Source: Planctomycetota bacterium (GTDB lineage: Bacteria > Planctomycetota > JACQVV01). Taken from it: a DNA stretch of 64,000 nucleotides. A program made the translations under genes and the position numbers. Under the pieces are notes generated by a model. That model ran no database searches and was not told the origin of the DNA. It was given only the letters and a program-made list of their open reading frames with translations. The stretch lies in assembly GCA_016209595.1 (NCBI GenBank), contig JACQVV010000510.1, positions 852 to 64,851 on the forward strand, read 5' to 3'. This document shows positions 5,675 to 36,800 of the stretch, one piece after another; the first letter of the stretch is position 1; each line of letters opens with the position of its first letter.

Positions 5675-6703
5675 TCAAGCGAAGATCAAGAAGAGCATGT
5701 ACGACATCACGGCGATGTTGTGGAGCGCGTGGAGCGCGATCGGGGCGGCGAGCGACCCGGACCGCTCGTAGGCGTAGGCGAGCACGAGCCCCAGGATGTA
5801 GATGGAGGGCCAGGTCGAGATGGGCCAGTGGACAAGCGAGAAGAGGAAAGCGGAGACCGCCATCGCCGGGAGCGGCCGGAGCCGCCGCCGGAGCGAGGAG
5901 TACAGGACCCCGCGAAAGAAGAACTCCTCGACCACGGGTGCCACGAAGCAGGCGGTGAGCGTTGCGCAGATGAGGAAGCTCCAGTAGCCGCCCTCGTCCC
6001 TGTCCCGCATTCGGTTGAGGATCTCCTGCGCCTCGACCTCCTTGCCGAACAGGAAGTGGATCGTTTCCACCGAGAAGCTCGACAGGAAAAAGATCGGGAC
6101 GAAGAGGATCCAGGCAAGGAACGCTCCGAGGAGGATCCTCCCCCATCGGTCGGGAAGGAGCCCCATCGCCCGCGGGCCGCTCCTGCGGAGCGCGAGGAGG
6201 ACGAGCGGGAGGAGGACCCACACCGCCACCTGCCACAGGTTCTGGGCGACCTGGTAGAGCGCGATCCGTGCGAGCTCCGGGACACGGAACCGCTCGAGCA
6301 AGGAGTGGACGAGGCCTGCGAGCGCGACGAGCAGGAGAAAACTCGCCGAAACGATCAAGACGATATCCAGGAACCGGAACGGGGAGGCAGGCTCGCGGAC
6401 GCGGACGAAGACTCGCCGCCCGACCGGGCCCAGAAGGTAGACGGCCGGAATCGAAACCACGATGAGGAAGGCGAGCGCCTTGACCCGATCGTGGGTGGTC
6501 AAGGGGGGATCTTCCCCGAGCTTGGGCGCCGGTTCGCTGCTTCTCGTCTCGTGCCAGGCCATCAGCGTGACGCAGGCGAAGAAGAAGGCGAGGATGCCTG
6601 CGACGAGAACGATGTCCCGGCGGCGTGTGCCCGCCGGAGGCGCTAGCGCCGGAATGGGTCCCATCAACGCGGAGAGCGGAACGACGAAGGCGGAAAAGGG
6701 CAC
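5675..6703 (-). CDS. CPBP family intramembrane glutamic endopeptidase (CAAX protease-like)
   Basis: Multiple TM helices; motifs EEFFFRG, FSLVHW and ALHALHN. Confidence 0.85.
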   Translation of the reverse strand: MPFSAFVVPLSALMGPIPALAPPAGTRRRDIVLVAGILAFFFACVTLMAWHETRSSEPAPKLGEDPPLTTHDRVKALAFLIVVSIPAVYLLGPVGRRVFVRVREPASPFRFLDIVLIVSASFLLLVALAGLVHSLLERFRVPELARIALYQVAQNLWQVAVWVLLPLVLLALRRSGPRAMGLLPDRWGRILLGAFLAWILFVPIFFLSSFSVETIHFLFGKEVEAQEILNRMRDRDEGGYWSFLICATLTACFVAPVVEEFFFRGVLYSSLRRRLRPLPAMAVSAFLFSLVHWPISTWPSIYILGLVLAYAYERSGSLAAPIALHALHNIAVMSYMLFLIFA

Positions 6704-6738
6704 TCGCGAGCAAGCCCGGTCCTACCGCTGTTTTTCAT

Positions 6739-6759
6739 TCCGCAATCCGCAATCCGCAA
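6739..6759. repeat. Perfect tandem heptamer (tccgcaa)x3 in a 62-bp intergenic spacer
   Basis: Read directly: ttccgcaatccgcaatccgcaatc. Its reverse complement with flank (ggaatgaaaaacagcgg) resembles one arm of the element at 33781..33914 (ggaactgaaaacagcagg). Confidence 0.8.
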
Positions 6760-6765
6760 TCAGAG

Positions 6766-7800
6766 TCATTTCCGGGGCTTGCCGAAGACGAGGCGACCCT
6801 GTGGCTTCTGGATCACGCTCGTCACCTCCACCTCCAGCTCCTCGCCGATCCGCTCGCGGGAGTTCTCGACGATCACCATCGTCCCGTCGTCGAGGTAGCC
6901 GCACGCCTGCCCGGGGTTTTCCCCCTCCCGGAGGAGCTCGACCCGGATCTCCTCGCCGGGGAGGACGGCCGTCTTCAGGGCGCACGCCACCTCGTTCATG
7001 TTGACGACCCGTACGCCGACGAGCTCGGCCATCGCCTTGAGGCGGTGGTCGGAGGTGATGACCTGGGCCCCCCGCCGGCGGGCGAGCTCGACGACCTTCT
7101 GCTCGATGGTCTCGACGGCCGAAACGTCCTCTTCGGCGATCGTGAGCTGGACGGCGCCGTTCGCCTGGATCTTCTGCAACATCTCCAGTCCGCGCCGTCC
7201 CCGCGCTCGGACGGGCTTCGCGGAGCTCTCCGCGGCCTTCTGCATCTCCACGACCACGAAGCGAGGGACGACGATCGGTCCCTCGATGAGCTTCGAGTGG
7301 AGGAGCTCGACGACCCGGCCGTCCATGAGGGCCGAGGCGTCGAGGATCCTCGGCACTCGGAGGCGATCCTGCTGGGTCAGCCGCACGAACGGGACGAGGA
7401 GCATGAACTCGTCCTTGGCCTTGAGGAAGAGCGAAACCGTGAGGTAGCAGAGCAGCGTGGTGAGTGCCGCGCGCACGGCAGAGGCGATCTTGGCGTCGAT
7501 CTCGGTGAACTGGGGGAGAAGCGCGAGGCCCTGGAGGAAGAAGTTGGCCGATACGAATCCCACCAGGAGCCCGAAAACGATCGCGAAGACCGCCGGGTAG
7601 AACCCCTTGGCAGCCCGCGCTTCGACGACGATCGTCGCGAGCGAGAGCGCGAGGCCGATCGCCAGCCCGGCGAGGTTCCGCAGGGCGAACCAGTCCGCGG
7701 GGCGGTTAATCGTCCACGCGAGCGACCAGCCGAGGCTCGCCGCGGCGATCACGAAGAAACCCCGCAGGACGTTGAGCGGGGCATTCGATTCGTGGCGCAC
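6766..7800 (-). CDS. PIN and TRAM domain membrane protein (YacL-like)
   Basis: N-terminal TM helices, a PIN-like ILDASALMDGR...VITSDHRL segment and a C-terminal TRAM-like GEEIRVELLREGENPGQACGYLDDGTMVIVE segment. GTG start overlaps the dGTPase stop by 1 nt. Confidence 0.8.
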   Translation of the reverse strand: MRHESNAPLNVLRGFFVIAAASLGWSLAWTINRPADWFALRNLAGLAIGLALSLATIVVEARAAKGFYPAVFAIVFGLLVGFVSANFFLQGLALLPQFTEIDAKIASAVRAALTTLLCYLTVSLFLKAKDEFMLLVPFVRLTQQDRLRVPRILDASALMDGRVVELLHSKLIEGPIVVPRFVVVEMQKAAESSAKPVRARGRRGLEMLQKIQANGAVQLTIAEEDVSAVETIEQKVVELARRRGAQVITSDHRLKAMAELVGVRVVNMNEVACALKTAVLPGEEIRVELLREGENPGQACGYLDDGTMVIVENSRERIGEELEVEVTSVIQKPQGRLVFGKPRK

Positions 7801-9029: not shown

Positions 9030-10232
9030 TCAGTCCTTTTCGCCCGGTCCGACCTCGATCGGCGGATGGACGGTGACGCCCCCCTGTTCGGAGGGACCGC
9101 GCGCCCCGGAGAGGACCCACGCCTCCACCTTCTCGTACTCGGCGCGAGGGAGGGGAGGGAGGCCGAACGGCATCGCGGGGTGCTTCGCGCCCGAAAGATG
9201 GGCGAGAAGCGGTGAATTCGCCGCGAAGCGGACGACCACCGGCCGCCGCAAGCCGAGGTCGTCCGTGCTCCCGCGGACGAGGTCCTCGTAGCTTTCGAGG
9301 CTGAGTTTCCGCGGGTGGCGGCCCCACGTCGCGAGCCACCCGGCTCCGCCCTCGGGGTTCGCCGTGGGCGGCGGGTCTGCGCGCGGGCCGTAGTGGCAGG
9401 CGAGGCAGCGCTCGTCGAAGATTCGTTGCACCTCGCCGTAGGAGACCTCGGGCCGCGGGGAGGGGACGGCGTTGGCCACGTACCATGCGAGGAGCCGGGC
9501 ATCCTCTTCGCCCATCGCCGGGTCGTCGGGCATGGCCGACCAGGGCATCGAGCGATGCCCCTCGCGGATCGCGCCCGCGAGCCAGCCGGGCCGCACTCGC
9601 TGCCAGGCGAGTGTGAGGTCGGGTGCGGCGCGTGCCTCGACCGAGATCGCCTCGCTCGGGAGCGAATCTCCCATCGCATGACACTTCGCGCAACCCTTCT
9701 CTTCGAAGCACCGGCGTCCCTCCGCCAGTCGGGCGGGGTCGGGGGACTCCTCCCTTTCGGGCCCCGGGGACCCTTGGCGCTGGACTTGCTCCCTCCCGAG
9801 CTCCTCCAGATAGAGGGCGAGGACCTCGACCTCGAAGTCGGAGAGATCGAGGTCGGGCATGCGTGAGGGCTGGTTGGAACGGACGGGGTAGGGGTAGCGC
9901 AGGAAGCGACGGAGCCAGTCGCCCGGCCGCCGCTCTGCGATTCGAGCGAGAGGGAGCGCCAGGAAGTCGGCGATCCCCTCCCGCGCGTGGCAGTCCTGGC
10001 AGTTCGCTCTCGGGTGCTCGACGGGAGTTCCCGGCTCGGTTCGGTGGCAGTACTCGCAGCCGCGATCCCGGACGACGCGGCCTCCGGAGGCGAGGATCTC
10101 CTCTCGTGTCCGGGGGAGCGCGAGATCCCCCGGCCAGGGCGGCGAAGCTCGATCGGCGACGCGGACGGCCGCGGCGAGGAGCGCAACCAGGCCCCCCAGA
10201 AAGAGAATCCCTATCCCTCTTCCTCTGTCCAC
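9030..10232 (-). CDS. Tetraheme c-type cytochrome, membrane anchored
   Basis: Four CxxCH motifs (CEYCH, CQDCH, CAKCH, CLACH) and an N-terminal hydrophobic anchor. Overlaps the anti-sigma gene end by 22 nt. Confidence 0.8.
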   Translation of the reverse strand: MDRGRGIGILFLGGLVALLAAAVRVADRASPPWPGDLALPRTREEILASGGRVVRDRGCEYCHRTEPGTPVEHPRANCQDCHAREGIADFLALPLARIAERRPGDWLRRFLRYPYPVRSNQPSRMPDLDLSDFEVEVLALYLEELGREQVQRQGSPGPEREESPDPARLAEGRRCFEEKGCAKCHAMGDSLPSEAISVEARAAPDLTLAWQRVRPGWLAGAIREGHRSMPWSAMPDDPAMGEEDARLLAWYVANAVPSPRPEVSYGEVQRIFDERCLACHYGPRADPPPTANPEGGAGWLATWGRHPRKLSLESYEDLVRGSTDDLGLRRPVVVRFAANSPLLAHLSGAKHPAMPFGLPPLPRAEYEKVEAWVLSGARGPSEQGGVTVHPPIEVGPGEKD

Positions 10233-12460: not shown

Positions 12461-13399
12461 CTATCGTTCCTTCGACCCGGCCGCGGCGAGCGAGATTCGG
12501 AAGTCCTGGGTCCACCGCGAGAGCGGGTTGGTTTCGCCTCCGATCCGGCGGCCGGCGATCTTCGTGATCACCGCCGTCTCGATCGGCTTCCATGTCCCCT
12601 CCTTCGAGGCGCGGTCCTGGACGGCCTGGAGTGGTTCCGGGAGCGCGAACTCGGCCACCCCTTCGAGCTCGAAGCCGAACGCGGCGACCTTGGCCTGGAC
12701 GTCGGGGATCGCGTCCTCCGTGACCACGTAGAGGCTGATGTCGAAGACGCCTTGCCCCCTGCTGAAGAGGACGGGGTAGACGATGGCCTCGGAGGCGAAG
12801 GAGATGCGAAGCGGCCGGAGGCTTCCGTTCCGGACGAGCGTCGATTCGCCCTGGCCCGGCCGCACGTCCACCGCGAGCCAGACCCATCCGCGTTCGACGT
12901 ACCAGGCCATGTTCTCGGCCGGGATCTCGCCGAAGCCGTTCGCGACGAGCCACTCGCCGAGCGCCCGGGCACCCTCGGTCCCGCTCGCCCGGATAGGCTG
13001 GATCTCGTACTCGCCGACCGAGACCTTGTCGAGGAGCTCGATCCCGCCCCGCGGCACGGCGTCCTCGCCCTTCGCGCCCTGGCCGTTCCGGAGCGACTTC
13101 TCCCACGCCTGCCAGGCGTCGAACATCGACCGGAAGATCTCGACGTCCTCGACCGCATAGTCGTCGGGGACCGCCGGGACCGGGATGACCCAGGCGAGGT
13201 GCGACGGGAGCTGCCCGCCGGCGCCCGGCTCGATGCGGAAGTCGTTCTTGAGGATCAGGTGCTCGCGCCCGTCGTTGTAGAGGAGGATCGCCTCCTGCCC
13301 GCCCTGCTCCGCGCTCCCGGCGTAGTCCTTCGGGACGTGGATGCAGGCGAGGACGGGGGCGGCGGCGAAGATCGCGGCGATCGTCGTGAGGATTCTCAT
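12461..13399 (-). CDS. Secreted DUF2330-like protein
   Basis: Signal peptide, then the conserved block LILKNDFRIEPGAGGQLPSHLAWVIPVP. The family name is from memory of the FAWVxPVP signature. Paralog of 13421..14341. Confidence 0.6.
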   Translation of the reverse strand: MRILTTIAAIFAAAPVLACIHVPKDYAGSAEQGGQEAILLYNDGREHLILKNDFRIEPGAGGQLPSHLAWVIPVPAVPDDYAVEDVEIFRSMFDAWQAWEKSLRNGQGAKGEDAVPRGGIELLDKVSVGEYEIQPIRASGTEGARALGEWLVANGFGEIPAENMAWYVERGWVWLAVDVRPGQGESTLVRNGSLRPLRISFASEAIVYPVLFSRGQGVFDISLYVVTEDAIPDVQAKVAAFGFELEGVAEFALPEPLQAVQDRASKEGTWKPIETAVITKIAGRRIGGETNPLSRWTQDFRISLAAAGSKER

Positions 13400-13420: not shown

Positions 13421-14341
13421 TTACCGTGGCGTGATCTTGAAATCGTCCTTCCAGCTCGCGAGCGAGATGCGCGGCCCGTTGACGCCGCGCCCCACGACCT
13501 TGTGGACGCAGGGGCTCTCGATCGTCTTCCAGCTCCCCTCGCGGGCGGCCCTCTCCTGGATGGCCTGGACTCGCTCCGGCAGGGCGAACGAGAGGACCCC
13601 TTCGAAGGAGAAACCGTACCGGGCGACCTGCTCGCCGATGTCGGCGACCTCATCCTCGGTCACGATGTACAGGTTGACGTCGAAGGTCCCCTGGCCCGCG
13701 TTCACGAGGACCGGGTAGGCAATCTCGTCCGTCGCAAACGAGATCGAGAGCGGGCGAAGGCTGCCGTTCCGCACCAGTTCCGACTCGCCCTGCGCGAGGC
13801 GGACCTTGACGGCGAGCCAGACCCAGCCCCGTCCCGCGTACCAGGCGAGGTTTTCAGCCGGCACCTCGCCGAATCCGTTCGTGGAGAGCCAGGCGCCGAG
13901 GGCCTTCGCCCCCTCCTCGCCGCGGGCGCGGATCGGCTGGATCTCGTACTCGCCCACCTCGACCTTCTTGAGGAGCTCCATCTCCTCGCCCGCCGGCGGT
14001 CCGTCCTCTTCGAGCTCCTCCTTGCTGTTCTCGGCGAACTGCTCCTCCCAGGCGGCGAAGAGGTCGCGGAAGACCTCGACGTCCTCCACGGCGTAGGCGG
14101 AAGGCTCGCTCGGGACGGGCAGCACCCAGGCGAGGTGCGAGGGGAGCTGTCCGCTCGCCCCCGGATCGATCCGGAAGTCGTTCTTGAGGACGAGGATCTC
14201 GCGGCCGGCGTTCCAGAAGACGATCGCCTCCTGGGCGGTCTGCTCGAGCGTTCCGTCGTAGCCCCGAGGAAGGTGCTCGCAGGCGAACACCGGCGCGGCG
14301 ACGGCCGCGGCGGCGAGGATGAGCGCTGGGGTCCGTGACAT
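13421..14341 (-). CDS. Secreted DUF2330-like protein (tandem paralog)
   Basis: Internal ATG at 14341 gives MSRTPALILAAAAVAAPVFA; LVLKNDFRIDPGASGQLPSHLAWVLPVP. The upstream part of ORF 13421..14806 is Arg/Pro junk overlapping the sigma gene. Confidence 0.65.
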   Translation of the reverse strand: MSRTPALILAAAAVAAPVFACEHLPRGYDGTLEQTAQEAIVFWNAGREILVLKNDFRIDPGASGQLPSHLAWVLPVPSEPSAYAVEDVEVFRDLFAAWEEQFAENSKEELEEDGPPAGEEMELLKKVEVGEYEIQPIRARGEEGAKALGAWLSTNGFGEVPAENLAWYAGRGWVWLAVKVRLAQGESELVRNGSLRPLSISFATDEIAYPVLVNAGQGTFDVNLYIVTEDEVADIGEQVARYGFSFEGVLSFALPERVQAIQERAAREGSWKTIESPCVHKVVGRGVNGPRISLASWKDDFKITPR

Positions 14342-15614: not shown

Positions 15615-18600
15615 ATGCGCGGGTCGCCAACCGACAGCGAAAGTGGAGAATCGGTCTTGGTCCCCAGGCACGACCCCGAGAGCGTCTACGCTCAGGTCCT
15701 CGCCGAGGGCGGCCTCCCGGCGAGGTTTCTCTCGCTCGTCGAGAGGGATGGGGAGAAGGTCGTGGTCGTGCGCAGGACGGATCACGCCGTCCGGGAGATC
15801 CTGGCGGCCATGGACGGCGGGGCGAGCGGCGCCGACCTGCAGGCAGGCTTCCCCGGCGTGACCTCCGAGGACGTGCGCGCGATCCTGGAACTCTCCCGGC
15901 GCGTGGACGAGATCGCGGGAAGAAGGAGCGCGTCCAGGCGGACCGTGCGGAAGCGGCCGGGTCTTGAGACGACCGAGGAGACGATCGTCGTCCCGCCGCC
16001 CCCGCCTGAGCGCCGGCGCAACCCGGGATCTGGATCGCATGCGCGATCCCGGACCGGGAGCGCCTGCGCGACCCCGGACAAGGACGTGAGGAAGCCCGTG
16101 GCGACGGGGGCGGAGCCGGAAATCGCACCGGCGGCCGGGGACCGCTACGAAATCCGCGAGGAGCTCGGTCGGGGTGGGATGGGACAGGTCCTCGTCGCCC
16201 ATGACCGCGAGCTCCGCCGCGATGTGGCTCTGAAAATCCTCCGCGAGGACCTCTCGTCCGACCCGCGCTACGCCCAGCGATTCCTGGAGGAGGCGCAGGC
16301 CTCCGCGCAGCTCGAGCACCCGAACATCGTCCCGACCTACGACTTCGGGCACCTCCCCGATGGGCGGGTCTACTTCGCGATGAAACTCGTGCGCGGGCGG
16401 ACGCTCGCCCGGGCTATCGAGGAACTCCGCGCCCAGAAGTCGCGGGCGCTGGAACGTATGCGCGACTCCGAATCTCAAGCGCATGCGCGACCCAGGACCG
16501 GGAGCGCAGGCGCGACCCCGGACAAGTACTTCGGCCTGGAGCTCCTTCTCCAGATATTCCTCAAGATGTGCGACGGCGTCGCCTACGCGCACGCCCGGGG
16601 CGTGATCCACCGCGACCTCAAGCCCGCGAACGTCATGCTCGGCGAGTTCGGCGAGGTCCTTCTCATGGACTGGGGACTGGCGAAGCTCCTGCCGCGCCGG
16701 CGCCGGCAGACGACGGGGTCGCGGAAGAGAGTCGCCCCCGATGTCCACACGCTTCGGGAGGAGTCCGACCTCGTGCTCACGCGGGACGGCGAGATCGCGG
16801 GGACCGCGCTCTACATGTCCCCCGAGCAGGCGCGCGGGGACCAGGACCACGTGGACCAGCAGTCGGACGTCTACGCCCTGGGCTCCATCCTCTACGAGAT
16901 GTTGACGCTCTCCGCGCCGTTCGAAGGAGCCGAGGGGGACGAGATCTTCGAACGGATCGCGAACGAGGACCCCGAGCCGCCCGCGAGGCGCGCTCCCGCC
17001 AGGCGGATCCCGCGCGAGCTCTCCGCGATCTGCCTGAAGGGGCTCGCGAAGGAGAAACGCGATCGCTACCGGACGGCGGCTGCCCTCCAGGAGGACATCC
17101 AGCGCTTCCTCGCCCACCAGCCGGTGCGGGCCGCTCCGGACAACCCGCTCCGGCTCGCCGGGAAGTGGGCGGTCCGCCACCCGACCCTCTCGGCCGCGGT
17201 CTCGATCGCGCTTGTCGTCTCCGCGCTCGCGGGCGCGGTCCTCAGGGTCCAGTGGACCGAGGCGAGGAACCAGAACCGGCTCCGGCTCGACGGGTATCGC
17301 GCCTCGGGCCGGGCCCATCAGGAGCGGGCCGCCGCGCTCCTCGACGAGTGTGCGGATGGCGCCGCGCGGGGCGACGTCCCACTCGAGGAGCTCCGTCTCG
17401 TCGTGCGCGAGTACGACCTCGCGCGCTCCTGGTACGAGATGCTCCGCAAGGAGGAGGAGGGGAGCGAGGCGTACGAGGCCGTCGTCCGGAGCTACCTCGG
17501 CCAGGCCCGGGCGGCGAGACTGGAAGAGATCATGAAGAAAACCCCAGGAGAGTACCCGGAGGCCGTTCGCTACCTCGAAGCGGCCCGCGCCGCGGACACC
17601 GAACGCCGCTTCGCAGGCGAGATCGACGCGGCTCTCCGCGACGCCGCCGCGATCGTGACGGTCACGCTCTCCCTCGCCCCGGCCGGCGCCACGGTCGAGG
17701 TCTTTCGGGTCGAGGGACCCTTCTGCGAGGAGACGTCCCTCTTCGAGGAGGTGGCCGGCGATTCGCCCGTTGTGCTTGACCTTGCCGCCGGGAGCTATGT
17801 CCTGGCCGCGCGCGCTCCCGGCCGGGCGCCCGCGAGGCTCCCCCTCTACCTCGAACGGTACTTCGACCGGAACCGGGAGCTCTCGCTCTCGCTTCTTCCG
17901 GCCGAGGAGGTGCCCCCCGGCTTCGTCCACGTCCCCGCCGGCTGGTTCCGCGCGGGCGAGGACGCGTCCTGGACTCGCATCGAGAAGGACTTCCTCATCG
18001 CCGAACGCGAGGTGGCCTTCGGGGAATACGTCGAGTTCTTGTCCTCCCTCCCCGAGGCGAAACGAGCGGAGTTCGCGCCGGCGGCCACGACGCTGGGCGA
18101 TCGCCAGCAGGACCTCCTCCCGGTCGTCCAGGAACTCGCCGACTGGGAGAAGTACCCTGCCGTCGGGATCTCGCTCGGGCAGGCAATTCCCTACGCGCGC
18201 TGGCGGAGCGAAGAGTCGCGCGGGGCTTTCCGCTTCCGTCTTCCGACCGACATGGAATGGGAGTATGCCGCGCGCGGCGCCGATGGCCGCCCCTATCCGT
18301 GGGGCTGGACCTTCGACCGCGAGCGCACGAACATGGCCCGGACCAAGGAGCACAACGTCAGCCTCGATGCCCTCCAGACCTGCCTCGAACACGCGGGCGG
18401 ACGTCCCGCCGGGCGTTCGGTCTTCGGGTGCCTGGAGATGGCGGGAAACGTCTCCGAATGGACCTCCACCGCGGAGCCGGACTTCGCCGTCTTCCGCGTT
18501 CGGGGCGGAGCCTTCAACTCCCCGGAGACGGGCTGCCTCACGTCCCACTACCAGGCCATGCATCAGATGGCCCAGTACACCCAGATCGGCATGCGCCTGG

Positions 18601-18620
18601 CGGCGGATGTGGCGAAGTAG
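15615..18620 (+). CDS. Ser/Thr protein kinase fused to a C-terminal FGE-sulfatase (SUMF1-like) domain
   Basis: Kinase motifs are LGRGGMGQV, VALKIL, HRDLKPANVML, DWGLAK and YMSPEQ. A TM segment (LSAAVSIALVVSALAGAV) follows. FGE motifs are VPAGWFRAG, RLPTDMEWEYAARG, YPWG, GNVSEWT and RGGAF. The N-terminal REILAAMDGGASGADLQAGFPGVTSEDVRAIL is DUF433-like. The exact start is uncertain. Confidence 0.85.
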   Translation: MRGSPTDSESGESVLVPRHDPESVYAQVLAEGGLPARFLSLVERDGEKVVVVRRTDHAVREILAAMDGGASGADLQAGFPGVTSEDVRAILELSRRVDEIAGRRSASRRTVRKRPGLETTEETIVVPPPPPERRRNPGSGSHARSRTGSACATPDKDVRKPVATGAEPEIAPAAGDRYEIREELGRGGMGQVLVAHDRELRRDVALKILREDLSSDPRYAQRFLEEAQASAQLEHPNIVPTYDFGHLPDGRVYFAMKLVRGRTLARAIEELRAQKSRALERMRDSESQAHARPRTGSAGATPDKYFGLELLLQIFLKMCDGVAYAHARGVIHRDLKPANVMLGEFGEVLLMDWGLAKLLPRRRRQTTGSRKRVAPDVHTLREESDLVLTRDGEIAGTALYMSPEQARGDQDHVDQQSDVYALGSILYEMLTLSAPFEGAEGDEIFERIANEDPEPPARRAPARRIPRELSAICLKGLAKEKRDRYRTAAALQEDIQRFLAHQPVRAAPDNPLRLAGKWAVRHPTLSAAVSIALVVSALAGAVLRVQWTEARNQNRLRLDGYRASGRAHQERAAALLDECADGAARGDVPLEELRLVVREYDLARSWYEMLRKEEEGSEAYEAVVRSYLGQARAARLEEIMKKTPGEYPEAVRYLEAARAADTERRFAGEIDAALRDAAAIVTVTLSLAPAGATVEVFRVEGPFCEETSLFEEVAGDSPVVLDLAAGSYVLAARAPGRAPARLPLYLERYFDRNRELSLSLLPAEEVPPGFVHVPAGWFRAGEDASWTRIEKDFLIAEREVAFGEYVEFLSSLPEAKRAEFAPAATTLGDRQQDLLPVVQELADWEKYPAVGISLGQAIPYARWRSEESRGAFRFRLPTDMEWEYAARGADGRPYPWGWTFDRERTNMARTKEHNVSLDALQTCLEHAGGRPAGRSVFGCLEMAGNVSEWTSTAEPDFAVFRVRGGAFNSPETGCLTSHYQAMHQMAQYTQIGMRLAADVAK
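16036..16082. repeat. 47-bp palindrome-rich repeat, copy A (in frame in the kinase linker)
   Basis: cgcatgcgcgatcccggaccgggagcgcctgcgcgaccccggacaag contains gcatgc and the tcccgg-a-ccggga inverted repeat. It encodes HARSRTGSACATPDK. Confidence 0.8.
16480..16526. repeat. 47-bp palindrome-rich repeat, copy B (in frame inside the kinase catalytic domain)
   Basis: cgcatgcgcgacccaggaccgggagcgcaggcgcgaccccggacaag; 43 of 47 positions match copy A by eye. It encodes HARPRTGSAGATPDK between the hinge region and the HRD helix. Confidence 0.8.
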
Positions 18621-22776: not shown

Positions 22777-23535
22777 GTGCAGATCCTGGAAGCGCACGGG
22801 ATCGAATCGGGCTACGGCGACGTCCAGGTCCTCTGGGGTGTGAGCCTCGCGCTCGAGGCCGGCCATGTGACCGCGCTCGTCGGTGGAAACGGCGCGGGAA
22901 AGACGACGCTCCTCTCGACGCTCGTCGGGCGGATCCGACCGCGGAGGGGCCGGATCGTTTTCCAGGGCGAGGACGTGACCCGGCTCGCCGCACACGCGAG
23001 GACCCGGCGCGGGCTCGTCCTCGTGCCCGAGGGGCGGCGCCTCTTCACCGAGATGACGGTCCTGGAGAACCTCCAGATGGGCGCGACCCCGAAGCGCGCC
23101 CGCGCGCGGATGCGCCCGAACCTCGATCGCGTCCTCGCCCTCTTCCCGCGCCTCTCGGAGCGGACCCGCCAGAAGGCCGGGACCCTCTCGGGCGGCGAGC
23201 AGCAGATGCTCGCGGTGGCGCGGGGCCTCATGTCGGAGCCGTCCCTCCTCATGGTGGACGAGCTCTCGCTCGGCCTCGCGCCCGTCCTCGCCGTGGAGCT
23301 CTTCCGCGCGCTCCTCACGCTCAAGGACGACGGGCTCTCGATCCTCCTCGTCGAGCAGAACGTCAGCCTGGCCCTGGGCGCGAGCGACCACGCCTACGTG
23401 CTCCGCGAGGGGAGGATCGAGCTCTCCGGCCCGGCGAGCGAGGTGAAGAGCGACGAGCGGGTCCGGCGGGCGTACCTCGGGATCGCCTGCGATCCAGGCC
23501 GTCCTCTCCCTCCCTCCCCGACCGCCGAAGCGTGA
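22777..23535 (+). CDS. livF: Branched-chain amino acid ABC transporter ATP-binding protein
   Basis: Walker A GGNGAGKTT, signature LSGGEQQMLAVARGL, Walker B LLMVDELSLGLAP and RRAYLGI, followed by a 16-residue tail encoded by repeat sequence. Confidence 0.9.
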   Translation: MQILEAHGIESGYGDVQVLWGVSLALEAGHVTALVGGNGAGKTTLLSTLVGRIRPRRGRIVFQGEDVTRLAAHARTRRGLVLVPEGRRLFTEMTVLENLQMGATPKRARARMRPNLDRVLALFPRLSERTRQKAGTLSGGEQQMLAVARGLMSEPSLLMVDELSLGLAPVLAVELFRALLTLKDDGLSILLVEQNVSLALGASDHAYVLREGRIELSGPASEVKSDERVRRAYLGIACDPGRPLPPSPTAEA

Positions 23536-23597
23536 GGCGGACGGATTGCGCCGGAAGGCCGCGAAGGGGCCCTCCCTCCACGACCGCCGAGGCGTGA
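23459..23597 (+). repeat. Direct repeat, left copy (livF 3' end plus truncated hairpin element)
   Basis: 139 bp matching 27316..27454 with about six mismatches by eye. It spans the livF codons RVRRAYLGI..AEA-stop and downstream sequence, and it ends exactly at ggcgtga. Confidence 0.85.
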
Positions 23598-23607
23598 CAG
23601 CGCGGCT

Positions 23608-27209: not shown

Positions 27210-27392
27210 CACGGTCTCATTGAGGCGGCGCGGTTCGCCGAGCGCACCCACGGGCCGGCGGCGCGGGTTGAGCGATGCGGGCCGCCGGGGCTCCTCGGGC
27301 AGGGGAAGGACGAAAGGGTCCGCCGGGCCTACCTCGGGATCGCCGGCGATCCAGGCCGCCCTCTCCCTCCCTCCCCGACCGCCGAAGCGTGA
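27210..27392 (+). pseudogene. Displaced, decayed 3' fragment of a livF-type gene
   Basis: In frame it reads ..AARFAERTHGPAARVERCGPPGLLGQGKDERVRRAYLGIAGDPGRPLPPSPTAEA-stop. This parallels the livF end ..ASDHAYVLREGRIELSGPASEVKSDERVRRAYLGIACDPGRPLPPSPTAEA-stop. There is no N-terminal ABC domain. Confidence 0.65.
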
Positions 27393-27454
27393 GGCGGACG
27401 GATTGCGCCGGAAGGCTGCGAAGGGGCCCTCCCTCCACGACTGCCGAGGCGTGA
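27316..27454 (+). repeat. Direct repeat, right copy
   Basis: Matches 23459..23597. Here it continues into gagagggagggagagg (27453..27468), the inverted partner of cctctccctccctc (27359..27372), forming a long hairpin element between convergent genes. Confidence 0.85.
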
Positions 27455-27478
27455 GAGGGAGGGAGAGGACCCGGCGCG

Positions 27479-29381: not shown

Positions 29382-29654
29382 ATGGCCCGTACGCTCGTGC
29401 TGGCCCTACTGCTGGGAGCCGTCCTCCTGGCCGTCGGCTGCCACTATTCCGATTACAGCGTCGCCTACGCCGACAAGAACACGGCCGTCTTCGTGTCCAA
29501 ACGGTCGGCGCCGCCGCCGCCGCCTCCGGCCCCGCCGCCCTACTACGGGCCCCCCCCGCACTACCCCGGAGACCAGGCTTCGGGCTTCAGGCTTCAGGGG
29601 TTGCGTTGCGGGGCCGGGAAGCCGCGTCTGAGCTGTAGGCGCCGCCCGCCGTGA
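29382..29654 (+). CDS. Small proline-rich lipoprotein
   Basis: RBS gagaggag, MARTLVLALLLGAVLLAVGC lipobox and a PPPPPPAPPPYYGPPPHYPG tract. Its last ~25 codons run through heptamer-repeat DNA. The stop overlaps the GTG start of the mega-ORF (GTGA). Confidence 0.5.
   Translation: MARTLVLALLLGAVLLAVGCHYSDYSVAYADKNTAVFVSKRSAPPPPPPAPPPYYGPPPHYPGDQASGFRLQGLRCGAGKPRLSCRRRPP
29576..29610. repeat. Tandem heptamers (ggcttcg ggcttca ggcttca) followed by ttgcg-ttgcg
   Basis: Read directly. The ttgcg units resemble the reverse complement of the tccgcaa heptamer at 6739..6759. Confidence 0.7.
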
Positions 29655-30830
29655 TACCCAGATACGACGCGATCGTCGTCGGCGCGGGCCCGGCGGGCGT
29701 CACCGCCGCGGCCGTCCTCGGCCGGAGAGGGCTTTCGGTGCTCCTCTTGGAGGCCGCGGTCTTCCCGGGGGCGGAGAACTGGTCGGGCGCGGTCTATTTC
29801 ACCGAGACCCTCGAGGACGAATCGGTGTTCGGGGCCGCCGGGCTCTCCGAGGCCCCGTTCGAGCGAAAGGTCGTCCGGAGAGGGTTCTTCTCCTCGAACG
29901 GCCACACCGTCCTCGGCGCGACGCTCGACTCGCCCGACACCTTCGCAAGCTCCTGCACCGTGCTCCGGCCGGTCTTCGACCGGTATCTCGCCGAGAAGAC
30001 CCGCGACTACGGGGTCACCCTCGTTCCGGAGACGACGGTTACGAGCCTCATCCGCGAACGCGGGCGGGTCGTGGGCGTCCACACGGAGCGGGGCCCCGCC
30101 TACGCGGACGTGGTCTTCCTCGCCGAGGGGGACGCGAGCCACCTGGTGAGCCAGGAGGGATACGAACGTCGCGGACCGGACGGGCGCTCAATCCGGCCGA
30201 AATTCCTCCAAGGCGTCCGCGAGGTGCTCCGGCTCCCGCCGTCCGAGATCGAGCGCCGCTTCGGGCTCATCCCGGGCGAGGGGGCAGCCTACGAGTTCCT
30301 GGTGAGGAACGGGGTTCGCCACGGCCGCCCGGTTCCCCTGAACCTGGGCGCCTTCCTCTACACGAACCTCGACTCTCTCTCGATCGGATACGTTCTCCCC
30401 CTCTCGAACCTCCGCGAGCACTGGGACGGCGACCACAACCAGCTTATGGAATGGTTGAAAGCCCAGGAAGTTTTCCGGCCCTGGATCGAGGGAGGGGAGA
30501 GCGCGAGTTACGGTGCGAAGCTCATCCGCGGCGGCGGCTTCCGGGAGATACCGCGGCTCGCCGCCCACGGCCTGGCGATCGGCGGCGCGGCGAGCGGGAT
30601 CGGCCTCGACTTCCCCTACCCCAACTTCACGGGGCCCGCGACGGCCATGGGGAAGCTCTTCGCCGAGGCGGTGCTCTCGATCCGGGAGTCCGGCGAGGCG
30701 TTCACCGCCGAGGCGCTCGAAGAGGAATACGTCCGGAAGCTCGAGCGGTCCCACTACTACAGGAGCGTCGAGTACCTCTCTGACTGGCCCGCCTATGTCG
30801 AGTCCACGCGGGTCTTCTTCGGATCTTCCA
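29651..30830 (+). other. Domain: FAD-dependent oxidoreductase, FixC / ETF-quinone oxidoreductase-like
   Basis: YDAIVVGAGPAGVTAAAVLGRRGLSVLLLE dinucleotide fold; later GDASHLV and LAIGGAASG. Confidence 0.7.
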
Positions 30831-33800
30831 TCGATCTCGCCAACGGGGCGGCCTACGTCCTCACCCGACCGCATCTCCCGGCTTTTCCCAAGTGGTGGGA
30901 GCTCGTCCGGGTGGTGCGGGAGGCCGTGCCGATTCGCGCCCTGCCGGCCACCCTCCGGGACGGCCTCATCCTCGCGCGCGTCTTCCGGGTGCCGGAGCTC
31001 CTCCTCGCCCATCTCCCCCGGGTCCTCGTGGCCTGGACGGTGAACTCCCTCACCGCGCTTCTGCCCGGAGGCTGGATCCCCTTCGACCGGTTCCGGGTCC
31101 ACTTCCACGTCGCGGGCGGGCGGGAGCCGGTGGCGGATCCGCCGGCGTTCGTTCGCTGGGCCGGACGGCGGATCGTGCCAGGTCTCGGGCGGGCCCTCCT
31201 TTCTGTCTACGCGAACGACGGGGCGGCGCTCCCCGAGAAGCTCCGCGCGGCTGCCCGGAGGGTCCTGGAGCGCCTTTCCTGGCTCGACCTTCTCCTCGCC
31301 TGCGGACTCGCGGTCGTCTTCGCCGTGACGGCGACGGTCCAGCGCGCCGGCGAGATCCTGCGCGCCGCCCTCGGCGGGCTTTTCGCCCTGGGCTTCCGCG
31401 GCGGCGCCGGACCCGCCGAGCGCTGTCGCGCCGCGCGCGACGCGGCGGCGGCCCTCGACGACCCCGCCCATGCCGCCGGGACGGACCTGGCGCGGAAGCT
31501 CGGCTACAACACCTACTTCCCCGGCCGCGAGAGCCACATCCAGGTCTTCCGGCCCTCCGGGATTCCCCGGCGGGGCGAGCTCGCGCGTTCCTCGCTTTTC
31601 TCCATCTGTCCGGCGAAGGTCTACGAGAAAGAGGAAAATCCGGGAGGCCCGCCGTCGGTCGCCGTCCACTTCGAGAACTGCGTGAAGTGCGAGAGCTGCT
31701 GGCGGGCGACGGACGAGGTCCACTGGAGCCGGGCAACCTCGCAACGCCTGATCTACGAAACGTACTCCCCGGCGCAGCGGAAGCTCGTCTCCTACCTCGA
31801 ATCGCGTCCGGATCCGGAACCGACTCCGCCGCCCGCGCTCGATCGCTGGGCCGACTGGCTCCTCCCACAGCGCTCGGGGCTCGATGCTTTCGCGGACTCG
31901 CTCGCGCCCGCGACGGCACTCCGCGTCGCCCGGCGCGTGAAGGAGGTTCTGGCCCGGGCATCTTCCGTGAAACGCGCCGCAAACCGGTTCGCCGAGGCGC
32001 TCTCAAAGGTCCCGCGCGTCCTCGACGAGGCACGAGCGGCCTGGCTCGCGGACCTCGCCGCCGCAGGCCGCTCGGGAGTCCTTTCCCTCGCCGAGCGGGT
32101 CCTCTCCTCACCCCTGGCGGAGCTCCGTCCGTACCTCGAAGCGCGGGCCCCCGACCATCTCTTCACGCTGGTCGGCTCGCTCGTCGAGAGGGTCGAGGAG
32201 TTCCCCCGGCTCGCCTCCGAGCGCAGGTTCTTCTGGATCGGCGTTCTTTTCCGGCAGTTGGTCGACCACCAACTCCATGGCCTCATCCTCGCGGTGTCGC
32301 CGCTCGCCATCCGGCTCGACCTTTGCGAGTCGAGGCCGCCGCGGGTGCCGGGGCTCCGGCGGACCCGATGGGACGAGCTCCGCGGCTCGCTGCGCGAGAG
32401 ACTCGCCTCGGCGTTCGACCGCGCCTCCGTGAAGGCTCTCGACGACGGGAAAGATCTCGGGGAGCCGGCCCGCGAGCTCCTCGGCCGGCTCTACGTCGAG
32501 GCGCGCCGGCTCGCCCCCTCGGACGGTTACGGACCCGGGGAGGTTCTGGTGGAGGAGCTCGCCAGGATCGACCCCTCGCTCGCGCTGTCGGTGGGAGGAC
32601 ACCAGGCGGCGGTGCGCTACCTCGATCTCCTGGGAGCTCAAGCGAGGACCGGAGACCTCGCCGAGGGTCGCGAGTGGGCGGTCCTCGTTCCCCGGCCGGG
32701 GGAACTCGTCCCGGCGGCACTTGCCGACCGATTCTGCGTTCTCTCCCCCGATGGTTCCGCCCATGTCGTTCGCAAGGACCACCCGGGACTCGCCGTGGAG
32801 CCGTGCCGGACGATCGGGGTGCGCGGGGCACGGCTCTCCCGAGTCCGATTCGACCCGGCCGCCGGGGATGTGGATTTTGCCGTTGCGGCCCCCGCCGGAT
32901 TCGTCCCGGAGGACGCGCTTCTCGCGGCATGGAGTCGCTCCTTTCTCGCCCTCGCCCTGGGCGCGGGCGAGTACCTGCTGGAACGGGCCAGAGCGCACGC
33001 GACGGGGCGCGTTCAGTTCCCGGGCGAGTTCCGCGATGAGGCCGGCCGCGAGGGGATCGCGAAGTTCGGGGCCGTGAAGGAGATGCTCGCCACGATGGAG
33101 CTCCATCGCCTCGAACTCTCGGCCCTCGCCGGAGAGGATGAGGATGAGGATCCGGGTGCGACACGGGCCGCCGTGCGCCATCTCGCTGCTGCCCTCGCGC
33201 TTTCCCCGGTCCCGGGCTCCTTCACCTACGACTCCGGACAGGTCTTCGGCGGCACCGCCTACAGCGAGGACGACGTCCTCGCGAAGTTCTACCGCGACGG
33301 CGTCGCGCTGGGACGATTGACGCCGGACGTTTCGCTCGCCAGGACGCGAATCGCGACGAGCTTCCTCGCGGGTTGGCCCGAGAACGCGAGCATGCGCGCG
33401 CTCGATGAGGCCGAGCGCTGGGGCGTGCTCGCCGGCGCCGCCCGCCGGATTCGAGAGGCGTGTGGCGTCCTCTCGGAGTGGGCCTCTCGCGCTCGCGAGT
33501 CCGCTACCCCCGACGCGGCTCTGGCCGGCGCGGTGGTTGGGGACGCGATCCTCGCGGTCCACCTCGCGCGACTTGTGGCGGTCGAGGCCCAGGAGCTGCT
33601 GGAATCGGGCCGCGCGGCCCATCTGGAGACCGAGCTCGCGCGCCTCGCGGCGGACCGGGCGCTCCCGGCCGCCCGCGCGGCCGTCCGGTCCTGGGATCTT
33701 GCCGGGCGCACCGCCTTGCTCGGACGCCGCGCGCTCGAGGGTCCGCTCTTCGAGCCGGCGGCTTCGGTTGGCGCCTGTCAGGGGGAGGGGAACAGCCCCC

Positions 33801-36800
33801 CCTTCCAACTCGGAACGCGGAACTCGGAGCTCGGAACTGAAAACAGCAGGGCGGCCTTGGCCCCAGTTCCGCATTCCGCCTTCCGCACTCCGCATTCGGG
33901 CGGCCCCCTCCCCCTTCCCAAGCGCGGGACGTACCGCGAGATCATCGAGTCGCCGGCCACCTACGACTCGGGAGAATTCCTCTCGCGGCCCTTCGACCTT
34001 GAAAGGCCCCGCTACGTTCCGGAAACGGTCGCTCGCGACGCCGATCTCTGGGACTTCCACGTCCGGACTCGTGAGTTCTACCGTTCCCAGTTCCACGGGC
34101 GGCTCTTCGACGGCTCGACCTACGGCCGGATGCTGGAACGACTCCACCGGGTTCCAGCCGCGGACCTCGCGCGCATTCAGGATCACGGCCACTTCAGGGT
34201 GTTCATTCCGCGGGAACTGGGTGGCCTCGGGCTCCCCAAGGCGTACTACTACCTGGTGATCCTCCACGCGACGCGCTGGGCCGATCCGGCGGTCTCCCTC
34301 ACGATCCAAGTCAACTCCTCGATCGGGACGACCCCGTTCCTGATCGGCCTTTCGGAGGTCCGGGAGGCCGCGCGAGATCTCGCGGCGGGAAACGCGGCGG
34401 GGTTCTTCGGAGAGATCGCGTCGCTCTTGCTCAAGGACCGGGCCCAGGACGCGCGGGAACTCCTCGCCCGTCGGTTCGGCCGCTCGCCCGTCCTGCGACA
34501 GATCTCCGGGCCCCTCCTCGACGCCCTCCGCGGAAGGGCCGGGGAGGCCTCGCGTCTCCTGGAGGCCCTGCCGGCTGCTCTCGCGGCGCGCCTGGAGGAG
34601 TGCGAGCGCCAGCGCCGGGCGCTCTCGCTCGCGCTCTCGCTTGTCTCCGCCGGGCAGGTGAGCGCGTTCGCCCTCACCGAGCCGACGGCGGGGAGCGACT
34701 CGGGCGGGGTGAAGACGACCGCCCGCCGCGAGCGCCGCCGCGTCCATGCGGATCCCGACGGGGTCCTCTGGTTCTGGCTCGACGAGGAGAGTGAGGAAAA
34801 GCGCCGGAACCTCGTGGATGCCGACCGGATCTCGACCGAGAGTCGCCGGATCCTCTACCGCTGGTCGGATTCCGAGGCGCCCGCCGAGATCCGCTTCGAC
34901 GAGTACGACTACGAGCGAGCCGGCGCCGCCGGCTGGCGCACCTACCTCCACGGCTCGCGGAAGGTCGAGATCCACGACGTCGCCCAGGTCCGGCGCGGCC
35001 CGGACGGACTCTTCTACGAGTACTACGAGCTCTCGGGCGCCAAGATGTGGATCACGAACGGCCGGTACGCGGGGCTGTTCGCCCTCTACGCGCTCACGGC
35101 GCCGGGCGAGGTCTCTGGGCTAGTGGTGGACCGCCACGCCGAGGGGCTGGTCGTCGGCGCCGACGAGGAGAAGCTCGGCCAACTGGGCTCGCCGACGAAC
35201 GAGCTCTCGCTCGACCGGGTCCGGGTCGCTGCCGAGAACCTGATCGGCGTCGCCGGCCGGGGGCAGGTGAACGCGCTGGAGACTCTGAACGTCGGCCGGA
35301 GCGGCCTCGCGATGACCTCCGTCGGGATGCTCCGCGATCTCCTCTTCTGCGACGTAGAGGACCGGCGGGGCGCCGGGGAGGCCGCGCTCCCGGCCTCGGA
35401 CCTCTTCCGCATGGGCCGTATCGTCGAGGAACTCGCGGCCTGCGATTCGCTTGCCCACGAGCTCGTCGGACTCTTCGATCACAAGGGGACGAGGAGCCTG
35501 CGGATCGAGTCGGGCGTGGCCAAACTCTTCGCGACCGAGTCGCTCGGGCTGGCGATCTCCGAGGCGGAGGAGCTCCGCGGGGAGGGTGCGGTCTCCACTC
35601 GCTTCGACCTGGAGAAGAAGCGCCGCGACCACCGCGTGCTCACGATCTACGAGGGCACGAACGAGGTGCAGCGGTTCCTCGTGCTCAAGGATCTGGTGCA
35701 GCGCGTTCTCCCGGCGTGGCGGGTTGCTCCGCCAGGAGAGCCGCCCGCGTTGAAAGGGGGAGGGGAACTGCCCCCTCCCCCTTCCTGCCGCCGGCACTCC
35801 CCTTGCGAAGCAAGGGTCGTGCCAGCGGCCCCCTCCCCTTCCTCCCCCGTGGGCGTGAATCCCGTCCACGTTGCGTTCCTGGAGAGCGCGAAAGAGCGCC
35901 TCCGCGCGCGCCTCGCGAGCGCCGTGGATCGGTTCGGAGAGGACGTCTGGCGGAATCCCTCGCTCCAGCCCTCCTTCTTCCGCCTCGCGGAGACGGCGAG
36001 CTGGATCAAGGTCGCCGATTCGGTTCTCTACCGGATGGCGAGGCTCGCGGCGATGGCCGAGCCCGGCCCTGCCGATCCGCACGGGAAAGCCGGAAACGAG
36101 ACGCGCCCCGAGGACCCTTTCCTGGAGGCAGGGGCGCTCCTGCTCGAGCGGGCGCGGATCGAGCTCGACCTCCTCGACGAGCGACACGCCCTCTCTCTTG
36201 CCTACTTGGAGGCCGGCCGCTATCCGCCGGAGATCATCGCCGCCGAGCTGGGACTGGAGGAGGCCGCGCGTCCGGGGTCGGTCCCGGTCCCGTCGCCGGC
36301 GCCGGGCGCGTTCGGACGGCCCGCGACCGTCGTGGTCGCAGTGAAGCCTGAGTTTGTGCTCGCGCCTCGCCCGCGGGTCGAAGAGGGCCGACTCGTCGAG
36401 CCGCTTCGCGCGCTGTCTCTCGCCGACCGGCGTGCGCTTTCGGTGGCGGAGAAGATCCGGGACGCGGACCCGGGCCGCATTCGCCTCGTCGTCGTCACGG
36501 CCGGCCCCCCGATCTGGGCCGAGATTCTGAGAGAGGCCGCGAGCTACGGCGCGGACGATGCCGTCCATGTGCTCGTACCGGACGGGGGCGAGGACCCGAT
36601 CGCCGCCGCCGGGTGGGTGGCGAAGGCCCTGGCGGAGCTGGGGGTCCGTCCCGATCTCGTCCTGGCTGGAGAGCGGAGCCCCGGATCGGGGAGGGGCGCC
36701 TTCGTGCCCGCGCTCGCCGAGGAGCTCTCGGCGGAGCACGCATCGGAGCTTGCGGCGGTGCTCCCCGCGCCGCCCGATCCCGCGCTGGAGGGGGGTGGAC

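Follow-up and report, generated by a model that had tools for sequence, protein, structure and literature searches.

The subject of this study is a palindromic segment of about 138 nt, here called E1, that lies inside the reading frame of a giant fusion gene in a 64,000-nucleotide stretch of DNA from a Planctomycetota bacterium (assembly GCA_016209595.1, contig JACQVV010000510.1, positions 852 to 64,851 of the forward strand; hereafter the window). E1 is probably a member of a non-autonomous palindromic repeat family dispersed in a planctomycete genome: selfish DNA comparable in kind to the Rickettsia palindromic elements (RPEs) and to the miniature transposable elements with inverted repeats known as MITEs. 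The evidence comes from near-identical inserts in two other conserved proteins, from the homologues of the fusion protein, none of which carries the insert, and from a second element in the same gene, E2, that has a terminus in common with E1.

The host gene and the parts of E1 have the following positions in the window, the GC-content of which is 69.6%.

29651–38263, plus strand: host gene, encoding a 2870-aa fusion protein (open reading frame (ORF) and translation, Pfam domains, identical protein MBI4617204.1).
33777–33915, plus strand: E1, composite palindromic repeat element of ~138 nt (absent from the other homologues; hairpin z-scores).
33780–33790, plus strand: outer left arm, AGGGGGAGGGG, part of a 21-nt terminus, AGGGGGAGGGGAACNGCCCCC, common to E1 and E2.
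33905–33915, plus strand: outer right arm, CCCCTCCCCCT, part of a 3' terminus, GCGGCCCCCTCCCC(C)TTCC, common to E1 and E2.
33807–33838, plus strand: left heptamer array of (N)CGGAAC type (Tandem Repeats Finder (TRF): period 7, 4.6 copies, AACTCGG).
33867–33897, plus strand: right heptamer array of TTCCGCN type, facing the left array (TRF: period 7, 4.4 copies, TTCCGCA).
33838–33847, plus strand: central motif, TGAAAACAGC, also present in E3 (an intergenic relative) and in the 5' spacer of the gene-bearing cassette L059/L078 (CTAAAACAGC).

Overall, E1 consists of G-rich terminal inverted repeats (GTCAGGGGGAGGGG ... CCCCTCCCCC) enclosing the two facing heptamer arrays and the TGAAAACAGC spacer. 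An earlier reading of this DNA, made from the letters alone (the sequence-only reading), had described a structured palindrome with outer inverted repeats, five 7-bp units in each inner arm and translation straight through the element. The outer arms are indeed complementary at 11 of 11 positions, and the facing arrays are present, with 4.6 and 4.4 units in place of five. The inner arms (33811–33839 and 33864–33892) extend over 29 nt with 76% complementarity, and 28 nt separate the arrays. A test for a common register of the G-rich arm and the heptamer arrays was negative: the two are out of register, with an offset of 23 nt. The boundaries, drawn with the help of the homologous copy in GatB described below, would be GTCAGGGGG on the left and ...GGCCCCCTCCCC on the right.

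The structure of the segment also holds when it is folded. Compared with dinucleotide shuffles, E1 has a z-score of -3.4 as DNA and -4.05 as RNA, with one shuffle in 200 folding as well in either case; the predicted RNA hairpin has a free energy of -73.8 kcal/mol. A gathering-threshold scan of the window against Rfam gave no match. Four of the six reading frames through E1 are open, and in that of the 2870-aa ORF the element is translated, stop-free, as ...CQGEGNSPPFQLGTRNSELGTENSRAALAPVPHSAFRTPHSGGPLPLPKRG..., so the read-through was correctly seen.

Further copies of the unit came from a phmmer search in which the 49-aa E1 peptide was compared with 1.84 billion representative proteins, giving 10 matches. 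One is in the GatB protein P0241 (MBI4617550.1; E 5e-13, 79% over 43 aa; insert VRGRETAPSSQLGTRNSELGTENSRGALAPVPHSAFRIPHSSGPLP) and another in the lipoate-protein ligase P0243 (MBI4617100.1; E 3e-6, 77%; insert ...RGTGNSELGTENSKGASVPHSAFRTPHSSGALP...). Both proteins are labelled 'MAG: Planctomycetes bacterium' (MAG, metagenome-assembled genome), and their accessions lie within ~450 of MBI4617204.1; because the numbers are so close and the label is shared, the GatB, ligase and giant-gene copies probably reside in one MAG. The inserts are evident from the proteins themselves. In GatB, ~40–44 residues at a turn (~residues 111–115) have no counterpart in Aquifex GatB (3h0l_B), and the Pfam domain GatB_N takes up 266 residues for 215 profile positions (~51 extra). 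In the ligase, LplA-B_cat takes up 107 residues for 73 profile positions (~34 extra); a PDB sequence search with this protein gave no match.

What is repeated is more than the heptamer core. When E1 DNA is read from 33777, with one base added after CCTTCC, it yields VRGRGTAPPSQLGTRNSELGTENSRAALAPVPHSAFRTPHSGGPLP, which agrees with the GatB insert at 41 of 46 residues. Since the match includes the G-rich arm, read in another frame, the whole composite is the repeated unit; an indel between the E1 and GatB copies presumably puts the left arm into another frame. The remaining phmmer matches (P0242 and P0244–P0249) are ORFs in which long arrays are translated, as (NSELGTR)n or (PHSAFRI)n; these are what heptamers of the CGGAAC and TTCCGC types encode.

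The history of the host gene sets the insertion in time. The host protein (P0001) is identical to MBI4617204.1, 'MAG: acyl-CoA dehydrogenase family protein [Planctomycetes bacterium]', encoded on a contig of 78.7 kb. Its modules are, in order, a flavoprotein resembling FixC and ETF-QO (ETF, electron transfer flavoprotein; QO, quinone oxidoreductase), a Cys-rich ferredoxin-like segment, a module weakly resembling acyl-CoA dehydrogenase (ACAD), an ACAD, an EtfB-like and an EtfA-like module. Pfam recognises the N-terminal FAD-dependent oxidoreductase (FixC/ETF-QO type), the N-terminal, middle and C-terminal ACAD domains (aa ~1497–2013), an ETF (EtfB-like) domain and an ETF-alpha FAD-binding domain. 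The six-module fusion has more than 100 full-length homologues of 2400–3040 aa with 33–45% identity, and those with a source name bear the labels Planctomycetota (including Gemmataceae), Acidobacteriota or Verrucomicrobiae.

Against these homologues E1 appears as an in-frame insertion of 49 codons (G1378–G1426, nt 33782–33928), positioned between two blocks conserved in 120 homologues. The segment spanning reference residues 1366–1441 is 76 aa long in the host and 26–34 aa in all 119 others of a 120-sequence alignment; an alignment of 23 sequences shows a clean 49-aa gap between ...IPDAE and PYEEV.... Judged from these alignments, E1 is a lineage-specific insertion that arrived long after the fusion, in a tight, pre-existing junction between modules. 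As the fusion is found in more than 100 homologues and the insert in none of the other 119, the fusion is far older than the insert, and an element that postdates the fusion is not a relic of it. The sequence-only reading had called this place the ACAD1/ACAD2 junction. Its position between two conserved blocks stands, and the identity of the upstream partner, 'ACAD1', is plausible: the module is conserved across the 120 homologues and resembles the downstream ACAD module weakly (hhalign E 0.004, probability 8%), with no match in Pfam or in a PDB sequence search.

The same gene contains a second element.

35754–35848, plus strand: E2, second in-frame insertion, aa ~2031–2066 (terminus match, homologue alignment, fold).

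The sequence AGGGGGAGGGGAAC recurs exactly at 35755 and begins a 21-nt 5' terminus that E2 and E1 have in common, AGGGGGAGGGGAAC[A/T]GCCCCC; the 3' termini are similar. The inner hairpin of E2 differs from that of E1, and in both elements two copies of the C-rich arm, CCCC(TC)CCCTTCC, flank it. E2 folds with a z-score of -5.4. It lies in a variable linker between the ACAD C-terminal domain and EtfB, where the 77 aa of the host make it the longest of 120 sequences (mode 42). Translated, the common terminus gives Q-GEG-N-SPP in E1 and K-GGG-E-LPP in E2; with the frames different, it is the DNA that is conserved and not the peptide. The window has four further GGGGAGGGG sites, at 9457, 11629, 22741 and 36688, and none of them is element-like. 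A scan of contigs with GGGGGAGGGGAACNGCCCC was set aside, its matches (at least 54, all single) being unrelated and attributable to chance and to the coding motif GEGNGPVNALD.

A relative of the heptamer core occurs outside genes.

6669–6761, minus strand: E3, intergenic relative of the E1 heptamer core (blastn of E1 and alignment).

It was the one heptamer-core relative returned by blastn of E1 in the window (6676–6766, best match in minus orientation, E 2e-5). E3 is laid out as (GCGGATT)x3–4, with units varying as GCGGANN, then TGAAAAACAGC, a GC-rich centre and TTCCGC-type units; it follows immediately 3' of the stop codon (6766) of a gene with a TRAM domain, and lies upstream of the next gene on the minus strand. 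The sequence-only reading had likened E1 to REP/MITE-like repeats, with Rickettsia RPEs as the best-known precedent for in-frame palindromes, and had made the existence of further copies, intragenic ones among them, its test. GatB and the ligase, with their near-identical copies in frame, together with E3, bear this out.

The heptamer arrays connect E1 to a wider class of elements. A 21-base pattern common to E1 and E3, CGGANNNCGGANNNCGGAANNNAAAACAGC, was searched in the Joint Genome Institute (JGI) metagenomes and found at 17 loci, less than one chance match being estimated if the collection is taken to hold roughly 10^12 bases. As read by eye from the flanks, ~14 of the 17 are true heptamer arrays. 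Six of these (L055, L058, L059, L061, L063 and L068) are followed downstream by an inverted array that matches their own heptamer variant, the inverted second array being absent from the search pattern. In L059 the order is (AGCGGAA)x4, ACTAAAACAGC, 14 nt, ATG, an ORF of 116 aa and (TTTCCGC)x4, and the ORF encodes a four-helix-bundle (4HB) protein (TIGR02436, E 1e-26; PF05635, '23S rRNA-intervening sequence protein', E 7e-22). Orthologous cassettes with 77% protein identity (L088–L091) keep both arrays and the stem; L089–L091 show a compensatory change, with GCGGAGA on one side and TCTCCGC on the opposite one.

A similar arrangement is found on plasmids. Among 12 plasmid 4HB loci from Cyanobacteriota, Chloroflexota, Bacteroidota, Spirochaetota and Bacillota, roughly 8–9 genes are flanked by heptamer arrays (flanks again read by eye), which are mostly inverted and built from a lineage-specific heptamer: (AATTCGT)4/(TTACGAA)4 in Nostoc, (CCAGTGA)/(TCACTGG)n in Euhalothece, and CTCCGCT-type arrays with a AAAAAAGACAG spacer in Treponema. 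The 4HB genes stand mostly between co-directional operon genes. Their neighbours at the plasmid (L072–L077, L094–L099) and metagenome (L078–L091) loci include DISARM drmD-MmeI, helicase-methylase and DUF1156-HEPN genes, as well as RND adaptor and permease genes, cas1/cas2 and a GFO_IDH_MocA-GHMP kinase pair. Most of the genes at these loci, as read by eye, are bracketed by heptamer arrays specific to the lineage. Among the papers available to the search, none connects PF05635 genes with heptamer arrays.

From this resemblance we suggest, with moderate confidence, that the core of E1 belongs, without a gene of its own, to the heptamer-array stems found on both sides of 4HB (S23p) genes in many phyla. 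The arms of a stem agree better with each other than with those of other elements (a mean of 3.2 against 5.8 mismatches), a modest signal that is used qualitatively. No match to a 4HB protein was found in the window by tblastn. That heptamer elements can stand in tandem is seen on the metagenome contig L070 (~1200–1330), where two gene-less units follow each other, ...GCGGAATGAAGGACAGCCCTGGAAAA and then (TGCGGAA)n-TAAAAAACAGCCCTGGAAAA.

Rickettsia offers the best-documented case of 'selfish DNA in proteins' inserted in frame. The first report concerned 44 RPE copies in R. conorii (Ogata et al. 2000/2002, as related in PMC10969869). RPEs, as portrayed there, are palindromic repeats of ~100–150 bp with no transposase inside, of which several copies per genome lie in frame in unrelated conserved genes, the peptide being tolerated (PMC10969869). 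E1 is like them in being a ~138-nt hairpin palindrome with in-frame copies in three unrelated conserved genes; it is unlike them in its host, a member of the Planctomycetota with ~70% GC, and in its facing heptamer arrays and G-rich terminal arms. The likeness is one of kind, in architecture and in-frame copies, and a relation in sequence is neither claimed nor expected.

For repeats other than RPEs, occasional in-frame intragenic copies are known, among them those of enterobacterial repetitive intergenic consensus (ERIC) sequences, and a 2024 review treats MITE-mediated protein evolution in other prokaryotes as a conjecture (PMC10969869). E1 resembles bacterial repeats of the MITE and REPIN kinds (ERIC, Correia, BOX and REPINs) in that it is small, of non-coding size and structured and has terminal inverted repeats, AGGGGGAGGGG and CCCCTCCCCCT, shared with E2. 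It departs from MITEs in the lack of a target-site duplication in its flanks, and no cognate insertion sequence was identified. Repetitive extragenic palindromic (REP) sequences and REPINs are described in PMC3733652 as 20–40-bp palindromes with GTAG or CGTC at one end, associated with REP-associated tyrosine transposases (RAYTs). E1 is far longer, and its ends (GTCAGGGGG... and ...CCCCCTTCC) have neither tag; no RAYT was identified, and none was searched for. The gene-bearing relatives that were found carry a 4HB gene and no transposase, which again sets them apart from MITEs and REPs.

Closer parallels are found in the intervening sequences (IVSs) of 23S rRNA. The IVS of Coxiella has a 28-bp terminal stem that is cut by RNase III, and 3–4 tandem heptamers directly upstream of its S23p ORF; IVSs were identified in 1990, and their origin and mobility are still described as unclear (PMC4990558). 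As in this IVS and in the 4HB cassettes L059, L074, L076, L077 and L098, E1 has a terminal-inverted-repeat stem that includes tandem heptamers. With the L059/L078 cassettes, arranged as array, 4HB gene and inverted array, it also shares the CGGAA-type heptamer and a spacer (CTAAAACAGC) resembling its own. Unlike these elements, E1 has no ORF of its own and a degenerate stem, and it occupies a protein-coding ORF rather than 23S rRNA helix 25/45 or the space between operon genes. Cyanobacterial short tandemly repeated repetitive (STRR) sequences are tandem heptanucleotide repeats. The GGGACCG x4 elements of Geobacter metallireducens are described as one set of four repeats in tandem, and a facing array is not mentioned (PMC2700814). 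E1 is similar to both in having short arrays of ~4 heptamers dispersed in a genome, and differs from both in heptamer sequence and host.

The evidence shows that the unit entered a fusion gene that was old by then, where two conserved modules meet, and that it entered at least two further conserved genes as well, gatB and that of the lipoate-protein ligase. On the reading that we prefer, a dispersed palindromic repeat, copies would persist where their length keeps the frame, where that frame is stop-free and where the Gly/Pro/Ser-rich peptide falls in a tolerant surface loop or linker; the encoded peptide would be a passenger without selected function. E1 itself may be a gene-less derivative of a 4HB cassette, lying within or joined to a G-rich inverted repeat specific to this genome.

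Several observations weigh against this reading. Inspection of the flanks revealed no direct repeat, and hence no target-site duplication, at the borders of E1 or E2; a transposase or another gene for mobilisation was likewise not identified. The stem of E1 is imperfect, with 7 mismatches in 26 nt as opposed to 0–1 in the gene-bearing cassettes. E3, the sole intergenic relative found in the 64-kb window, is without the G-rich outer arms, and a strict pattern of the G-rich terminus had no matches in the JGI metagenomes. The AAAACAGC match is partly built in by a search pattern derived from E1 and E3. Finally, the 77–79% peptide identity among the copies also fits recent spread or some selection on the peptide.

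The alternatives must account for the same facts. If the hairpin acted in the transcript, for example as a site where RNase III processes the RNA or where its stability is set, or as a point between modules of the 8.6-kb mRNA at which translation pauses, then the great stability of the predicted RNA hairpins (z = -4.05 for E1 and -5.4 for E2) and the placing of both elements at module boundaries would be explained; moreover, the heptamer stems of 4HB genes keep their pairing through compensatory change, and the Coxiella IVS stem, with heptamers in its 5' region, is an RNase III substrate (PMC4990558). We nevertheless regard such a function as unlikely. The GatB and ligase copies fall within the catalytic-domain models GatB_N and LplA-B_cat rather than between modules, the stems of E1 and E3 have decayed (7–9 mismatches in 26 nt), and none of the homologues needs a site of this sort; cleavage in mid-ORF would also leave a 5' fragment without a stop, which is hard to square with the conserved and intact frame downstream. 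The chances are poorer still that selection acts on the 40–50-aa Gly/Pro/Ser-rich peptide (…QLGTRNSELGTENSR.ALAPVPHSAFR.PHS.GPLP) as a functional linker or interaction motif gained by several proteins. Three in-frame copies with 77–79% amino-acid identity, all three of them keeping the host frame, are what such a module would give, but the reading frame of the G-rich terminus changes between E1, E2 and the GatB copy, and the related copy E3 is intergenic. Palindromic heptamer DNA alone yields peptides of 7-aa periodicity in any frame, the same peptides occur in the spurious-looking array ORFs P0242 and P0244–P0249, and the peptide is present in none of the 119 homologues.

The sequence-only reading had itself suggested a relic of gene fusion: when separate neighboring genes joined, an intergenic repeat between them would have been caught as a linker. 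The position of E1 at a module boundary accords with this, as does the usual location of related heptamer cassettes between co-directional operon genes; even so, the idea has to be given up as highly improbable. More than 100 homologues (33–45% identity, several phyla) have the architecture with no insert at the site, and the nearly identical gatB and ligase copies of the same MAG point to recent spread, in single-enzyme genes (gatB and lplA-like) where no fusion is involved. Least probable is an artefact of assembly or amplification, whether chimeric or hairpin-derived. The source is a MAG, and amplification chimeras can make palindromes, but the element does not repeat its own flanks in inverted form, it occurs on three separate contigs with a long conserved ORF kept each time, and related elements are present in independent metagenomes.

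A broader possibility goes beyond the dispersed repeat and is, in our estimation, doubtful. Heptamer-array stem-loops, with or without a 4HB (Avd/S23p-like) gene, might form one pan-bacterial family of mobile cassettes that takes in the 23S IVSs, STRR-like repeats and the present elements, and whose gene-less derivatives colonise coding sequence in frame. In that case E1 would be an element of the IVS type lodged in an mRNA, possibly still an RNase III substrate, and the 4HB protein or a partner enzyme would be the long-sought factor for mobility or maintenance.

Repeats of other kinds also lie in frame within coding sequences. Two linkers of a giant-gene homologue that belongs to another lineage (P0071, locus L092) contain heptamer arrays in frame: at 2118–2189, near aa 606–630, (CAGCRAT)x4 and then units of CACTCNC type, and at 6460–6563 (site 2), (GGTTCAG)x4...(ACCACTC)x4. 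Two more homologues, P0092 and P0102, have unique inserts near aa 605; the long site-2 linker of P0112 is GC-rich and foldable and is without heptamer arrays. In the window, a 25-nt unit, GAGCGC.TGCGCGACCCCGGAC.GG, repeated three times in frame (75 nt), occurs twice (16003–16085 and 16447–16529) in a Ser/Thr kinase/FGE-sulfatase ORF (15615–18620, plus strand), the second time inside the Pkinase domain, which has 316 residues for 260 profile positions. One inverted unit, TGTCCGGGGTCGCGCATACGCG, at 38128–38185 (minus-strand match at 38139) corresponds to a 9-aa insertion in the SGVAHTRSRGSADRG region of the giant protein, where the EtfA-like C-terminal segment measures 45 aa in the host; in 118 homologues its length is exactly 36 aa. 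A sequence resembling the 25-nt repeat, SGVAHARSGVAHAR, is present in the ligase P0243. The host genome thus appears to tolerate many small repeats inside its coding sequences.

Other repeats of the window stand apart from these. A heptamer array (CAGGCTT x3.6, 29574–29598) is found ~50 nt upstream of the start of the giant ORF, overlapping the end of a small proline-rich ORF that starts at 29383 and has a signal-peptide-like N-terminus. A direct repeat of 154 nt, 93% identical, is present at 23452–23605 and 27309–27462, 3.9 kb apart. The adjacent segments 12577–13380 and 13516–14316, ~940 nt apart and 69–73% identical, look like a tandem duplication of a minus-strand gene. As to the giant gene, the fusion of FixC, ferredoxin-like, ACAD-like, ACAD, EtfB and EtfA modules is itself a large conserved family in several phyla, annotated just as 'acyl-CoA dehydrogenase family protein' or 'ETF-quinone oxidoreductase'.

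E1 brings RPE-like palindromic repeats, inserted in frame, to a new phylum; its heptamer-array architecture is unusual and links it to the IVS/4HB cassettes. A free-living, GC-rich planctomycete lineage thereby shows a Rickettsia-like phenomenon, one element in three conserved enzymes, and a single giant gene has received three separate repeat-derived insertions: E1, E2 and the 9-aa insert of the EtfA-like module. The heptamer core ties these insertions in coding regions to the enigmatic 4HB/23S-IVS cassettes. With the empty sites known from 119 homologues, they are natural insertion events in which the spread of hairpins and the tolerance of proteins toward them can be studied.

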